Notes under the pieces: generated by a model | Databases searched by the model: none | What the model saw: only the letters and a program-made list of their open reading frames with translations | What the model was told of the DNA's origin: nothing | Position numbers and translations under genes: made by a program | Shown: positions 14,850 through 37,016 of the stretch, piece by piece | How positions within the stretch are numbered: position 1 is the stretch's first letter | How the letters are laid out: each line of letters opens with the position of its first letter | Assembly (NCBI RefSeq): GCF_963921235.1 | Contig: NC_086097.1 | Coordinates: 53,446,001 to 53,510,000 of the forward strand | DNA length: 64,000 nt | DNA from: Mobula hypostoma | Taxonomy: Eukaryota | Direction: 5' to 3'

Positions 14850-15105
14850 CCGAGAAGATGGGCCACATCTGGACTGGCCCAGGACAGAAGTCTCTGGCGA
14901 GCCACTGTTGGTGGCCTATGCCCCAGTAGGCATGAGAAGAAGAAGAAGAAGAAGAAGAAGAAGAAGAAGAAGAAGAAGAAGAAGAAGAAGAAGAAGAAGA
15001 AGAAGAAGAAGAAGAAGAAGAAGAAGAAGAAGAAGAAGAAGAAGAAGAAGAAGAAGAAGAAGAAGAAGAAGAAGAAGAAGAAGAAGAAGAAGAAGAAGAA
15101 GAAGA
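14850..15105 (+). mobile_element. RTE-type LINE extreme 3' end with expanded (GAA)n tail
   Basis: Encodes LAQDRSLWRATVGGLCP, a typical RTE-family C-terminus, directly followed by the AGA repeat. Confidence 0.7.
14935..15105. repeat. Perfect (AGA)57 microsatellite
   Basis: 171 bp uninterrupted trinucleotide tract, read directly. Confidence 0.98.
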
Positions 15106-15154
15106 TATTTGCACATGGATAGAGAACTGGAAAGCCAATAGGTTTTACATACAA

Positions 15155-16720
15155 GAAAGCATCAAGTTGGATAAGTCACCGGGACTGGATGAGGTGTACC
15201 CCAGGCAACTGTGGGAGGTGAAGGAAGAGATTGCTGAGCCTCTGGCAATGATCTTTGCATCATAAATGGGGATGGGAGAGGTTCCAGAGGATTAGAGGGT
15301 TGCAGATGTTTTTCCCTTATTCAAGAAAGGGAGTAGAGATAGCCCAGGAAATTATAGACCAGTGAGACTTACTTCAGTGCTGAGCAAGTTGATGGAGAAG
15401 ATCCTGAGAGACAGGATTTATAAACATTTCGAGAGGCATAATATGAATAGGAATAGTCAGCATGGCTTTGTCAAAGGCAGGTCGTGCCTTGCGAGCCTGA
15501 TTGAAGTTTTGGAGGATGTGACTACACACATTGATGAAGGTAGAGCTGTAGATGTAGTGTATATGGATTTCAGCAAGGCATTTGATAAGGTACCCCATGC
15601 AAGGCTTATTGAGAAAGTAAGGAAGTATGGGATCCATGGGGACCTTGCTTTGTGGATCCAGAATTGGCTTGCCCACAGTGGTTGTTGACAGGTCAGATCC
15701 TGCATGGAGGTTGGTGACCAATGGTGTACCTCAGGGATCTGTTCTGGGACCCCTTCTCTTCGTGATTTTTATAAATAACCTGGATGAGGAAGTAGAGGGA
15801 TGGGTTAGTAAATTTGCTGATGACACAAAGGTTGGGGGTATTGTGGATAGTGTGGAGGGCTGTCAGAGGTTACAGCAGGACATTGATAGGATGCAAAACT
15901 GGGCTGAGAAGTGGCAGGTGGAGTTTAACCCAGATAAGTGTGAAGTGATTCACTTTGGTAGGTCAAATATGATGGCAGAATATAGTATTAATGGTAAGAC
16001 TCTTGGCAGTGTGGAGGATCAGAGGGATCTTGGGGTCCGAGTTCTTAGGACACTCAAAGCTGCTGCGCAGATTGACTCCGTGGTTAAGAAGGCGTATGGT
16101 GTATTGGACTTCATCAACTGCTGGATTGAGTTCAAGAGCTGTGAGGTAATGTTGCAGCTATATAGGACCCTGGTCAGACCCCACTTGGAGTACTGTGGTC
16201 AGTTCTGGCTACCTCACTACAGGAAGGATGTGGAAACTATAGAAAGGGTGCAGAGGGGATTTCCAAGGATGTTGCCTGGATTGGGGAGCATGCCTTATGA
16301 GAATAGGTTGAGTGAACTTGGCCTTTTCTCCTTGGAGCGATGGAGGATGAGAGGTGACCTGATAGAGGTGTATAAGATGATAAGAGGCATTAATTGTGTG
16401 GATAGTCAGAGGCTCTTTCCCAGGGCTAAAATGGCTAGCACGAGAAGGCACAGTTTTAAGGTGCTTGGAAGCAGGTACAGAGGAGACGTCAGGGGTAAGT
16501 TTTTTTACGCAGAGAGTGGTGAGAGCGTGGAATGGTCTCCCGGCAATGGTGGTGGAGGCGCATATGATAGGGTCTTTTAAGAGGTTCCTGGAGAGGTACA
16601 TAGAGCTTAGAAAAATAGACGGCTGTGGGTAACCCTAGGTAATTTCTAAAGTAAGTACATGTTCGGCACAGCATTGTGGGCTGAAGGGCCTGTATTGTGC
16701 TATAGGTTTTCTATGTTTCT
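15155..16720 (+). mobile_element. CR1 LINE, 5'-truncated (RT and 3' UTR)
   Basis: QHGFVKGRSC, DFSKAFDKVPH, GVPQGSVLGP, FADD, RPHLEYC; tail ttctatgtttcta. Confidence 0.95.
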
Positions 16721-32078: not shown

Positions 32079-32578
32079 TGTATTGTAAAGGGTTCACCTT
32101 TGTGCTTGGTGAATGTCTTCATCGCTATGGCCTTGAGTGTACATGAAAATGTGTTACACCATGAGAATTCAATACTACTGTGGGAATACAACCACTAGAA
32201 CATGAAAATCAGGTGAACACAGGGGCAAGATTAGTGAGTTGTGGTGACAAGTGACGATTGGTTATGGATTGGTGGTTTGAGTTGGTACTAATGTACTGGC
32301 CCGCTTCTGAAGCATTTCATATTAGTGGAATGGGTATAAAAGTAGAGTGGTTGAGGGTAGGTTGTCAAGGCCTCACTTATGGGCTGGTTGTGAATGGCAC
32401 TGTGGATCAAGTGGGAGGTATGCTACAGTGACAAGAGCATATGCACACCTGGATAAATGTTTTGATGTTTGCTGTTCTGTCCTAATAAGCAACGTTTTGT
32501 AGCTCTGAGTAGATAATTGGAGTTTGTATCTTTCCACCTTACCGAGCCATTCTGTGAACCTTTTGGTGTAACGTAATA
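32079..32578 (+). repeat. ERV 5' LTR (500 bp)
   Basis: Starts TGTATTGTAAAGGG, TATA-like gtataaaag at ~32334, ends ggtgtaacgtaata; colinear with the 3' LTR. Confidence 0.9.
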
Positions 32579-32581
32579 TTT

Positions 32582-32602
32582 TGGCTTTGTCGGCTAAGGA
32601 TC
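32582..32602 (+). promoter_or_regulatory. Primer binding site, tRNA-Ser-like
   Basis: TGGCTTTGTCGGCTAAGGATC 3 nt after the LTR; resembles the complement of the vertebrate tRNA-Ser(AGA/TGA) 3' end, TGGCGTAGTCGGCAGGATTC. Confidence 0.7.
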
Positions 32603-32639
32603 TGGCAGGTGTGAGAGAAAGCAAATATGCTTGCAAAAA

Positions 32640-34150
32640 ATGTTTAGGAGTAAGAGTAAGAAGGAAGACCCCCTTGGTGAAGAATACCGAGTACCAGGGT
32701 GGACTGATAACTGGGAGCCATTAGCAGAGAGCTTAAGGATATGAGCTCTGGGAGAAGGTGGAGTGATCTTATCCGACTGGGAAATGGGAGCTGTGTGAGG
32801 ATTGCCATCAAACCATGGGTTTGGCAACCTGGCCAGTTTGCTCGCAGAACATGATGTGCTAGTGGACTGGACAGACAAGCTGGACATACAAGGGTAAAGA
32901 TGGGACACCATCTCATATCCATACTAAAGGGGTTAAGGTGCCTGGACAAGAAGGGCAGCCAGAGAGAGCTGCTGGCATCCATCATAAACCAATCTCTTGG
33001 AAAGAGGAGGAGATAGAGATTCTTGAACACAAGGTGGGGAGATTGAATCAGTGCAGCATGACCACAGATCTGCATTAAAGAGATGGAGAAAAAGAGTATC
33101 GATATCACCTGTTACCTGACCAAGATCCAGAAGCAGGAAATGGGTCGAAGGGCCAATTAGCAATTGGACCCAGTGAAGATCTGAGCTCTTATTTTATGGG
33201 GCGATGACCTAGATACTCAAGGATACAGATATTTGGTTTGATGGTGAGGATTGGGATTATAGGGTGAAAAGTCACTTTCCTTCCTCTGCCCCCCAAGTCC
33301 TTAAGAACACAACTAACTAGGGTTATTATGTCCACAGAAACCGGGCCTGACCAACCTCCCTCTCCAAGCCCCTGTCATCCTGTGGGGCAGCCTGATACAC
33401 CGGGCCAATGTGTCATCCAGCTAGAGAAAGTGCAAGAGTGGAGATCCGAAATTTTGGCCACCGCAGTGGTTGACTAAGAACTACTCCTCCAAGGAATTGA
33501 TGGAGTTGGAGGATCGGACCAGACAGTAATTGCAGGAACCATTAGCAGAGTACTTGTTAAGGATACGAGCCGTGAGAGGAGGTGGAGAAATGGGTGCCCT
33601 GGGAGGATTGCCATCAAACCATGGGGCAAGCAATATCCTATGGGGGAATGGTCAGAGAGTATAAGTCTTTGTGGTAGAGAGCAGCAGCTGCAGTAAAGGG
33701 TAAGCATCCCTCCCTGTTAGACTGGGATTTAGACTGTCAAGAACTGTGGAACACAGTGGAGGAGGGGACTGAGGCTCTTCGTCAGTGGGCCCTGATCACT
33801 GGGGCTTATGGGGGTGGGGATGACCCGCTGGAGGATCAGAAGTTCTCCCTGACCGTGGTAGGGTACCTGGTAAAAATGGCAGCCCTCCATTTGAAGGGAA
33901 AGATGCTGCCTCTTTCAGGGCCGGTGGAAGGGAGGACAGTAGGTTTGGCTACCGAACTCTTGGAGAGGTTGGTACATGTAAGCAGGGCTTGTAGCCGGGT
34001 GAGGAAGACAAAGAAAGATAAAGAAGTAGAAAGGGGGGGGGGTGCTCCCACCTGACCGGTATGGAGATGCTTTTAGCTCTGCTCAAGACAGGCATCCTGA
34101 AGGAACAGAAGGACGTGATACCTGCTACTGCTTTGTGTGCTTTATTGTTA
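32640..34150 (+). pseudogene. gag: ERV gag remnant (ERV-L/Fv1-like capsid)
   Basis: YSSKELMELEDRTRQ*LQEPLAEYLLRI and WNTVEEGTEALRQW...EDQKFS...LVKMAALHLK...TVGLATELLERL parallel the ERV-L Gag motifs YTxKEL...WILRVWD and WFNVEEGIQRLRE...EDIPFT...LTVGTAVTQL. Confidence 0.75.
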
Positions 34151-34329
34151 AAATAGGAAGGGAGAGGAGCTGCAGGAGAGAAGGAGACCTCTGCTGATCT
34201 CCAGCTCCTGATACACCTCCCTTGAGGCATTGCAGATAGCTCCCCAACACCTGGCACTCTGCTCCTATGGGAGTATGGCCAGGGCTCCTAGTGTATATAT
34301 TCAGTGACTCTTTCTCAGCCGGGAGGCCT

Positions 34330-35135
34330 GAGGCCTTACCTATCTATTGTGGTCCACTGGAAGGGGAAATGCACAATGACGGTTGGCACATTGATAATGA
34401 GGCTGAACACACGATTATCCCAGAGCCCCAGGTGATGATAGAAGGGCTGGGAGGGTTACTCATTTCAGCCTGGATAGTTACAGTAAGCGCAGCCATCAGA
34501 ACAACCAGGACCTATGTCTGTGCTGGTTGTGGCATTCCCGATTGTATTTTGCCTATGAATGTGCTGAAAGATAGGTCCCTGCAAAACAATTTTTTGTTCT
34601 GCAAAGTTTACTTTTGGGGTGGCTGGAGTGACGGTGCTGGTGGGACTGGCCAAGTGGGAGCCTCTCATAACCTGCCTCTTGACCAAGGTGCTGAACATCA
34701 GGCAGTACCCCATCCCAGGTGGCATCAGTACCCCATCCCAGGTGGCATCAAGGAGATCGGAGAAACACGTTGAAGGAGGGGGGGAAGTTTATTCGGCTGG
34801 CAATGTTCCCCTATATTAGTCCCATGTGGCCAGTGCGGAAGGGGGATGGAACCTGGTGAGTGACGATAGACTTTAGGCAATTGAATAAGCACGCCCGCCC
34901 CTCACAGCAGCCGTCCTAGGTGTAGTGACCATTGCACAGGACATAGGAGGTAGGGACGGGAAACATTGGTACTTTGTAGTAGATTTGGCCAATGTTTTCT
35001 TTTCCATTCTCTTGAGTCCCTGGTTGCAAGACCAGTTTGCCTTTACATGGGAAGGGAGACAGTATACCTTTTGTCATCTTCCCCAGGGATATGTGCACAA
35101 CCCAAACTTGTGCCATGACCTTATAGCTTGAGAGT
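34330..35135 (+). pseudogene. pol: ERV protease and N-terminal RT remnant
   Basis: Protease IDNEAEHTIIP (degenerate DTGA), IEGLGG, PDCILPMNVL; RT QYPIPGG, SPMWPVRKGDGTW, IDFRQLN, VDLANVFFSI, QFAFTWEGRQYTFCHLPQGYVHNPNLCH (class III signature); the YxDD region, RNase H and integrase are missing. Confidence 0.9.
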
Positions 35136-35224
35136 TGCAGGGCACGGAATAAATCCACCATGAGCTTGTTTTAGGAATGGTATGTACTGGCATCTGAACA
35201 GACGAAGACCAAGGTGCCAACGGT

Positions 35225-35843
35225 GTTGACAGTGTTGTTAAGAAGGCGTATGGTGTGTTAGCCTTCATCAACTGTGGGACTGAGTTCAAGTAATTTTACA
35301 GCTATACAAGACCTTAGTTAGATCCCATTTGGAGCACTGGAGTTCTGGTCACCTCTCTAGAGGAAGGATGTGGATAGCTTACAGTGCAGAGGAGATTTAC
35401 AAGGATATTGCCTGGATTGTAGAGCATGTCTTATGAGAATAGGTTGAGTGAACTTGGCCTTTTCTCCATGGAGTGATGGAGGATGAGAGGTGACCCGATG
35501 GAGGTGTATAAGATGATGAGATGCATTGATCGAGTGGATAGCCAGAGGCTTTTTCCCAGGGCTGAATGGTTAACACAAGGGGTCAAAGTTTTAAGGTGCA
35601 TAGAAGTAAGTACAAGAGGGATGTCAGAGGTAAGTTTTTCACTCAGAGAGTGGTGGGTGTGTGGAATGCACTGCCAGTGACGGTGGTAGAGGCAGGTACA
35701 ATAGAGTCTTTTAAGAGATTCTTAGATAGGTACATGGAGCTTAGAAAAATAGAGGGCTCTGCAGCAAGGAAATTCTAGGTAGCTTCTAGAGTAGGTTACA
35801 TGGTCGGCACAATGTAATGTGCTATAGATTTCTATGTTCTATG
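35225..35843 (+). mobile_element. CR1 3' fragment inside the provirus
   Basis: aagaaggcgtatggtg...; KFFTQRVVGVWNALP; tail ttctatgttctatg; same family as 15155-16720. Confidence 0.9.
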
Positions 35844-35844
35844 T

Positions 35845-36545
35845 ACCAACGTTGAATGTACTACTGCAATCCAGGAATAATTGCGATTGTCATTATGAAG
35901 GGCTGGTTCTGATGGGAAGTAGCTCTTGTACCTTTATGCACCTTAATGGTACAAAGCAGTGTGGCACTACTACTGTGAGAAGATACTGCTTTGAGACACA
36001 TTTGTTTCCCACATTGAATGGCACGCTCTGGGTGTGTGGCTCTGGTCCTTACCTTTGGCTCCCCACGGGTTGGTCTTGCTGTTGCTACCTGGTTTGCTGT
36101 GCTCTATGGGTATCACATTGATGATCTGGTCGACCACCCAACCCACAAATCGAAACATCAGAAAAAGGGTATCACAATGGCCAACTGATTATGGATGTTG
36201 TCTTTTCCCCCATATGGTATTGCCCTGTTATATAGGGAGATCATCTTAATGGCCTCAGAGAGAATACAATGGCATTGGATTATATCCTGGGTACCTGTGC
36301 CATAATAGGGCCAGGAGCATTGTATGTACATCCCTGATGAATCAGCGAATATAACAAATTTGGCTGACCATATCCAACAGTCAGTAGATAAGATGTGTAA
36401 TGTAGAATATTACACCCTGAGAGGGAGTTGGTGGCCTTTTTGGAACACCTGGAGACTAGTGGGCTACCGTTGTGCACTGGGGTGCTCCTGTAGACATTTT
36501 GCTTTTATGTTTAGCAATTTTGCATTTTGGTTGTAATGAAGTGGG
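35845..36545 (+). pseudogene. env: ERV env remnant, gamma-type
   Basis: SU motif NGTLWVCGSGPYLWLPTGWSCCCYL; furin-like RNIRKR; fusion-peptide-like YGIALLY; ISD remnant ENTMALDYIL; degenerate CX6CC (CAIIGP/EHC) then YIPDESANIT. Confidence 0.8.
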
Positions 36546-36603
36546 GCATCCATGGGGGATGCATTAAAGCCTCTGGGGCAGATGTAGTGGGGTTGCAACA
36601 TTC

Positions 36604-36614
36604 GAAGGGTGGAA
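36604..36614 (+). promoter_or_regulatory. Polypurine tract
   Basis: gaagggtggaa immediately before the 3' LTR. Confidence 0.7.
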
Positions 36615-37016
36615 TCTATTGTAAAGGGCTAATCTTTGTGCTTGTCGAATACCTTCACCACTGTGGCCTTGAGTGTGTGTGACTGGGGCCGTGAGAATTC
36701 AACACACCTGGTTCAGTGGTTTGAGCCGGTGCTATTGTATGGGAGCACACTGCAGCATTTCATATCGGTGGAATGGGTACAAAGGTAGAGTGGTTGGAAG
36801 CAGATTTTCGAGGCCGCACTGATGGGCTAGTGGCGGACTGCACCACGGATTGAGTGGGAGGTGTGCTTCAGTGAGAGGGCCCACTCACACTTAGATAAAT
36901 GTTTTAATATTTGCTATTCTGCCCTAACAAAGTTTTGTAGTTATAAGTAGGTAAAAGGAGTTTGTGTCTTTCTGCATTACCAAGGTGGTCCGTGAACCTT
37001 GTGGTGTAATGTAACA
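36615..37016 (+). repeat. ERV 3' LTR (402 bp)
   Basis: Starts TCTATTGTAAAGGG, ends ggtgtaatgtaaCA; about 100 bp shorter than the 5' LTR. Confidence 0.9.

Follow-up and report, generated by a model that had tools for sequence, protein, structure and literature searches.

Class III endogenous retroviruses (ERVs) of the ERV-L type proper (HERV-L, MuERV-L) have a primer binding site (PBS) of the Leu type, and HERV-S has one of the Ser type. XtERV-S of Xenopus tropicalis, as described in the available text of Yedavalli et al. 2021 (PMC8278194), couples a class III, ERV-L-type gag-pol and a Ser PBS to a transmembrane subunit (TM) of class I gamma type; the same text gives ERV-S as having env sequences and lacking dUTPase, and its reference table, in the form available, lists no cartilaginous fish. 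The locus described here occupies positions 32079-37016 of a 64-kb stretch of DNA (the window) and is a real, heavily decayed provirus in which every gene is broken and which encodes no working viral protein. It is probably a fixed, neutrally decaying provirus of the class III, non-spuma ERV-L/S group, primed by tRNA-Ser, equipped with a gamma-type env and resident in a ray.

Elements with parts of this combination have been reported from other hosts. A frog survey (10.1101/2024.07.05.601823) gives, in the portion available, two further ERV-L-like families with env. In the accessible parts of Xu et al. 2018 (PMC6001957), clade Huo comprises class III ERVs in all major vertebrate lineages, and the whale-shark element Rh_ty_ERV3 is listed beside No_fu_ERV1, HERVL, Murine_ERVL and HERV-S in S2 Fig, a placement taken from label order only. 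The available text of Chen et al. (10.1101/2021.11.23.469661) reports ERVs with gamma-type env in six cartilaginous fishes and an anamniote element, ERV-SA.a-Ppe, that has a class III Pol with a class I env and is related to snakehead retrovirus (SnRV). Snakehead-like and epsilon-like elements in the elephant shark are reported in the available sections of Han 2015 (PMC4422223).

Layout of the provirus

The features recognised within the locus, from one long terminal repeat (LTR) to the other, are as follows.

32079-32578, forward strand: 5' LTR, 500 nt, with 86 nt absent from the 3' LTR
32582-32601, forward strand: degenerate PBS of tRNA-Ser type, beginning four bases past the 5' LTR
32640-34291, forward strand: gag of ERV-L/Fv1 type, with many stops and frame breaks, colinear with stingray Gag-Pol model P0028
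32707-32827, forward strand: inserted duplicate, about 120 nt, of the capsid-start region (33526-33629), near the gag start
34310-34578, forward strand: protease remnant in two frames, with a degenerate active-site motif, assigned by similarity to stingray Pol
34590-35140, forward strand: N-terminal half of reverse transcriptase (RT) in several frames, ending short of the catalytic YxDD motif
34703-34750, forward strand: perfect 23-nt tandem duplication within RT
35226-35845, forward strand: 3' fragment of a long interspersed nuclear element (LINE), which we take to be CR1-like, inserted into the provirus
35846-36545, forward strand: likely env remnant, from a C-terminal piece of the surface subunit (SU) to a hydrophobic anchor, in four frame segments with stops, assigned by motif order and hydropathy
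36604-36614, forward strand: polypurine tract (PPT), 11 nt, purine-rich, abutting the 3' LTR
36615-37016, forward strand: 3' LTR, 402 nt

The provirus has the order LTR-PBS-gag-pro-pol-(env)-PPT-LTR. A preliminary description of the stretch had given the layout as LTR-PBS-gag-pro-RT-env-PPT-LTR; the LTRs, PBS, gag, pro, RT and PPT of that layout stand, and the env part is likely but weaker. The provirus it had proposed is real but far more decayed than was stated, with RNase H, integrase and most of SU lost. That description had overlooked the inserted LINE (35226-35845), the absence of some 757 codons of pol relative to the stingray homolog, the 23-nt tandem duplication and the duplicate of the capsid region.

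The two LTRs are identical at 310 of 397 aligned sites (78.1%) and differ in addition by one 86-nt indel. Their Kimura two-parameter (K2P) distance is 0.267 (95% confidence interval (CI) 0.21–0.33), and the LTR halves taken separately give 0.22 and 0.28. The Ser-like PBS of the preliminary description was borne out, since 16 of 18 positions are alike, with a 2-nt insertion, when it is compared by eye with the Ser PBS of XtERV-S (taken from the supplement of PMC8278194). No tRNA genes and no Rfam families were found in the 64-kb window. The 5-mers that flank the provirus are identical at three of five positions, which is compatible with decay or chance; the target-site duplication of ERV-L and XtERV-S is 5 nt long. 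One contig of run X1 jumps from 32514 in the 5' LTR to 36961 in the 3' LTR, as another LTR copy or a solo LTR would.

Class III assignment of the gag, protease and RT remains

Within a local set of 100 proteins, the capsid piece matched its relatives with E 1e-14 and the start of RT with E 6e-14, and the protease remnant was 36% identical over 69 residues to stingray Pol (E 4.5e-6); the protease remnant alone had no Pfam match. The best of 40 proteins compared by tblastn was the stingray Gag-Pol model P0028 (Hemitrygon akajei), which is colinear with 33476-35137 and belongs to a 90% cluster of 13 proteins; NCBI gives the name Fv1-like to five of these. Fv1 derives from ERV-L gag. No Cys-His box was visible by eye in the three frames of gag, and a Gag of the Fv1/ERV-L type without such a box, as found here, is a mark of the class III ERV-L/S clade. 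The duplicate of the capsid-start region aligns with its source at a score of 108.5, against a maximum of 37.5 in 500 shuffles, with 85 of 99 aligned sites alike (K2P 0.16, CI 0.09–0.25), and no equivalent repeat was found in the stingray Gag. With copies less diverged (K2P 0.16) than the LTRs (0.27), this duplicate may offer a second clock.

The open frame 34889-35128 holds all three of the RT motifs that the preliminary description had claimed. The first of them, of the DLANVFFSI type, is not diagnostic on its own, since the class I-like rows P0039 and L078 share the form. The Pfam RVT_1 match to the RT piece (E 1.7e-4, 21.8 bits) lies under the family cut-off of 29.6. Similarity ends near residue 820 of a 1577-residue relative, so that the provirus lacks a counterpart to about 757 residues, RNase H and integrase among them; the region of the catalytic motif YIDD, present in the relatives P0028 and P0026, is deleted in the provirus.

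Phylogenetic placement was performed with the unbroken 80-residue piece of RT, which contributes 79 window columns. In a 41-row tree the piece falls inside a starred set of 15 rows (97/96) made up of stingray, electric-ray, lungfish, turtle, newt, galliform and Xenopus elements. A second tree, of 32 rows and including outgroups, drew on 18 of 100 proteins and 13 of 78 loci (the loci not individually annotated); there the piece falls within an 18-row class III clade (99/96), apart from three class I-like rows and 11 LTR-retrotransposon-like rows, the latter being the outgroup loci. Approximately unbiased (AU) tests rejected a union of the piece with the class I-like rows and one with the retrotransposon rows (p 0.004 each), and the class III (ERV-L/S-like) assignment of the preliminary description is upheld: the RT piece belongs to the ERV-L/S clade, class III and non-spuma. 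Union with XtERV-S alone (p 0.012) and with five fish and amphibian rows, four of which carry dUTPase (p 0.033), was also rejected, both groups having been picked after the trees were seen. In both trees the nearest rows are batoid elements. P0026 was taken as the Pol of XtERV-S on the ground of a constant offset of 17 from Table 2 of PMC8278194, seen in its length and in three motif positions; the fourth position, the protease motif, is off by three more than 17.

Foamy virus and murine leukaemia virus RTs from the PDB gave equal, weak scores of about 30 bits, with fewer residues aligned than in ERV-L/S-type RTs. No class III relatives were found in viral-contig scans, and in the metagenome scan one of 77 loci was of class III type, the rest being retrotransposon-like (23–32% identical) and serving as the outgroup. 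The metagenome retroelement L002:1824-4376 has integrase domains where its match begins, apparently upstream of RT, and sits on a long branch. The Pol proteins P0004-P0008 and P0010, from ray-finned fishes (killifish, medaka, mudskipper and other sources), are ERV-L-like and form a supported clade of their own, most with a dUTPase after the integrase.

A class III element of the snakehead-retrovirus kind, comparable to those of the elephant shark or to ERV-SA.a-Ppe, would also join a class III Pol to a gamma-type env, a pairing reported among SnRV-related anamniote elements, and no named snakehead sequence is in the trees. The RT piece is nonetheless 56–62% identical to XtERV-S-like and batoid RTs, and the Gag matches Fv1-like proteins. 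Judged by eye from the parts of Xu et al. that were available, Ca_mi_ERV1 and Rh_ty_ERV4 have other RT motifs, and Rh_ty_ERV2, which is listed beside snakehead retrovirus, has an unrelated Gag with a zinc knuckle. A snakehead-like origin in place of the ERV-L/S clade is accordingly very improbable.

The LINE insertion and the deletion of pol

A second copy in the window, at 16072-16670, shares 80% identity with the LINE fragment over 607 nt. Contig depth summed over the fragment is about 1e6, compared with 8 on the flank. A segment of about 85 nt (35140-35225) separates the RT similarity from the LINE, and the breakpoint of the deletion is either here or at the LINE. In run X5, record 17, a contig of organism B has 353 nt past 35115 that are unaligned among the pieces listed and may retain other sequence or a hidden piece of LINE.

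This junction is the site at which two proviruses or subfamilies could have recombined, one supplying the LTR-gag-pro-RT half and the other the env-LTR half. Under such a chimera the env might be foreign to the gag-pol, and an age read from the LTR divergence would be too high. The position of the pol-env junction at the deletion and LINE fits this, as do the flanking 5-mers that agree at only three of five positions and the LTR distance of 0.267 with its 86-nt indel, set beside an internal gag duplicate that is less diverged. The CIs of the two distances overlap, however, and the two LTR halves diverge alike. Moreover, the LTRs are plainly of one family over their whole shared length, so that even two source copies would have belonged to a single LTR family. 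A chimera is unlikely on this evidence, and an origin of env and gag-pol from one virus is the reading that we infer for the ERV-L/S provirus.

The likely env remnant

Env-type motifs follow one another over the 700 nt between the LINE and the PPT, with a Trp/Cys motif of the SU C-terminus at 36029, a furin-like site at 36156 and a stretch resembling the immunosuppressive domain (ISD) at 36260. Downstream of these are a Cys loop at about 36290-36335, split by a frame break, and a hydrophobic anchor at 36482. As to the env features named in the preliminary description, the ISD-like stretch at 36260 holds, the furin-like site departs from the canonical form, and the frame break divides the Cys-rich TM loop. 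In 2000 shuffles the SU and ISD patterns occurred in none and the loose furin pattern in 174, the patterns having been written after the sequence had been seen. A fifth pattern, that of the fusion peptide, had no match in the env stretch.

Independent support from further searches was modest. The TM piece matched TLV_coat/GP41 clusters in the Atlas at 0.91–0.93, with a recognition value under the threshold of the tool, and the SU piece had no usable match there. A word search with the TM piece returned one candidate and none at E 10, and tblastn of the L078 env against the window found nothing in the env stretch. In a search of 1.84 billion representatives, three matches to the SU piece (RCC1-repeat, unassigned repeat and invasin-like proteins) were rejected as chance. 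A frame-tolerant alignment to the TLV_coat env of L078 scored 52 against means of 34–36, a score reached by none of 100 shuffled references and by one of 164 control window tiles, and the best alignment terminates at the end of the TM ectodomain in both sequences.

The same stretch could belong to an env-less element of ERV-L type and resemble env by chance. No env piece has a profile match, and the motif patterns postdate inspection of the sequence, both of which speak for chance. Four env-type motifs and a hydrophobic anchor in the expected order, within 700 nt directly before the PPT, speak against it, as do the TLV_coat/GP41 identity of the Atlas clusters matched by the TM piece and the frame-tolerant alignment that beats 100 of 100 shuffled references. 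A chance resemblance is thus a poor explanation and hardly to be expected, and a remnant of gamma-type env in the ERV-L/S provirus is likely, judged from motifs and alignments.

Orthology, copy number and age

Part of the stretch is contained in 15 of 21 listed runs (six studies), and four of the 15 were analysed. In organisms B, C and D there are contigs that cross from the unique 5' flank into the LTR, and in B and D the boundary between the 3' LTR and its flank is spanned too. All three also share the LINE-env junction: a contig of D passes from the LINE tail into env, and those of B and C begin about 30 nt within that tail. These three other labelled organisms carry the insertion at the orthologous site, and from the shared flank-LTR and LINE-env junctions it follows that both provirus and LINE are older than the species splits. 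Locus-spanning pieces of B, C and D differ from the window at 117 of 5446, 183 of 3743 and 339 of 4810 sites, respectively (2–7%), counts that exclude shorter pieces near 80% identity, taken as paralogs. In one contig of organism B, 41 nt spanning the furin-like site are missing, as expected where there is no selection; this speaks against co-option of env.

LTR bins had a summed depth of 125–234, compared with 8 for the flank, and the pieces listed included paralogous ones of gag and RT; the summed depth is no copy number, and together these observations point to a multi-copy family. The host is probably a ray, judging from the nearest relatives of the provirus, which come from rays, and the cartilaginous host of the preliminary description is consistent with these relatives. 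No RNA run was listed as containing the stretch.

The divergence between the LTRs is 3.6 times that between organisms A and D, the most distant carriers, and on this ground the insertion may be more than 100 million years old. Under three published rates, one taken from the available part of Song et al. (PMC10699275), the absolute age came to 61, 267 or 607 million years, and absolute dating was dropped as unconstrained.

On either side of the provirus (window 1-31200 and 39000-64000), both strands are densely populated by LINE fragments and by short repeats that belong to several families, with no host exon identified. A long perfect trinucleotide repeat of roughly 60 units lies at about 14930-15110.

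Proposed history of the provirus

In the proposed sequence of events, an infectious retrovirus of class III, primed by tRNA-Ser and bearing a gamma-type envelope, would have entered the germline of an ancestral ray and spread to several copies with the layout seen in XtERV-S and HERV-S. Entry would have preceded the split of at least four related species, with this copy becoming fixed. Deletion would then have taken two-thirds of pol, at its 3' end, and most of SU from the copy, which would also have gained the LINE fragment, stops and frame breaks.

Several observations weigh against this account. The target-site duplication is poor and the LTRs are unusually divergent. The grouping with batoid elements carries no star (93/80, with 83/92 for the sister pair), and the branch of the window row is long. 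XtERV-S is the only identified reference in the trees, from which named sequences of HERV-S, HERV-L, snakehead, foamy and loki elements are absent. One control tile equalled the env alignment score, and no env homolog was found in the PDB or in two large protein searches. The TM profile match that the preliminary description had proposed as a check was not obtained on the provirus copy, and none of the five env pieces matched a retroviral env family in Pfam, a lack that is well explained by decay.

Comparison with known systems

The provirus differs from ERV-L proper, which is env-less and has a Leu PBS, in its likely env remnant before the PPT and its Ser-like PBS. With XtERV-S it shares a class III, ERV-L-type gag-pol, a Ser PBS, a Gag without Cys-His box and membership of the same starred RT set, and its putative TM resembles the gamma-type TM with ISD and CX6CC, in degenerate form. 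The RT piece is 57% identical to that of XtERV-S over 69 residues. XtERV-S is intact and recent, whereas the provirus is old, deleted and interrupted by a LINE, and a sister grouping of the two was rejected, as described above. XtERV-S also has a dUTPase-like region after the integrase, a region that is deleted in the provirus; Pfam dUTPase was found in none of the seven batoid Pol-bearing relatives scanned (P0025 ends before the integrase) and not in P0026. HERV-S/ERV-S, compared by description only from the available text of PMC8278194, is likewise class III with env sequences and no identifiable dUTPase, but its host is a primate.

Closer in host are elements of the whale shark and of rays. 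Rh_ty_ERV3, in the accessible material of Xu et al., has the same series of Gag motifs as the window and P0028 when compared by eye, in a shark rather than a ray. ERV-SA.a-Ppe, whose host may be a sawfish to judge from the code Ppe, is similar in pairing a class III Pol with a gamma-type env but is classed as SnRV-related in the available text of Chen et al. The models of Hemitrygon akajei (P0025, and the P0028 cluster of 13) and Narcine bancroftii (the P0034 cluster of 14) have a colinear Gag-Pro-RT with the same N-terminal Gag motif, within a long Gag-Pol with RNase H and integrase that is annotated as uncharacterized or Fv1-like. The RT piece is 59–65% identical to these models, which therefore represent other families. 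The P0028/P0073 cluster of H. akajei and the P0034 cluster of N. bancroftii are multi-copy class III Gag-Pol elements without a Pfam dUTPase, apparently unnamed ray ERV families.

A preliminary view of the provirus as possibly undescribed holds only in a narrow sense. No description of an env-bearing ERV-L/S element in rays was found in the literature, with Repbase, Dfam, subscription journals and the supplements of Chen et al. outside the scope; on the other hand, the union of class III gag-pol, gamma-type env and Ser PBS is known from XtERV-S, and whale-shark Rh_ty_ERV3 has the same type of Gag. The value for deep retrovirus phylogeny that had been foreseen did not materialize, the copy being too deleted and a poor phylogenetic marker. 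It is a tentative suggestion that rays harbour an old env-bearing ERV-L/S branch of their own, with young relatives in stingrays and electric rays, and that the provirus is among the oldest datable cases in which a gamma-type env accompanies a class III gag-pol. If so, an env-bearing ancestral state would be favoured, with mammalian ERV-L having lost env.

The provirus extends the layout of XtERV-S and HERV-S, that is, a class III core with a Ser PBS and a gamma-type env, to a probable ray. As an orthologous, datable insertion found in four or more labelled organisms, it is relevant to the question of whether the env-less state of ERV-L is derived. The kind of virus is already known from frogs and primates; the provirus adds a host group rather than a new kind, and the useful lead lies in the unnamed stingray and electric-ray families to which it points.

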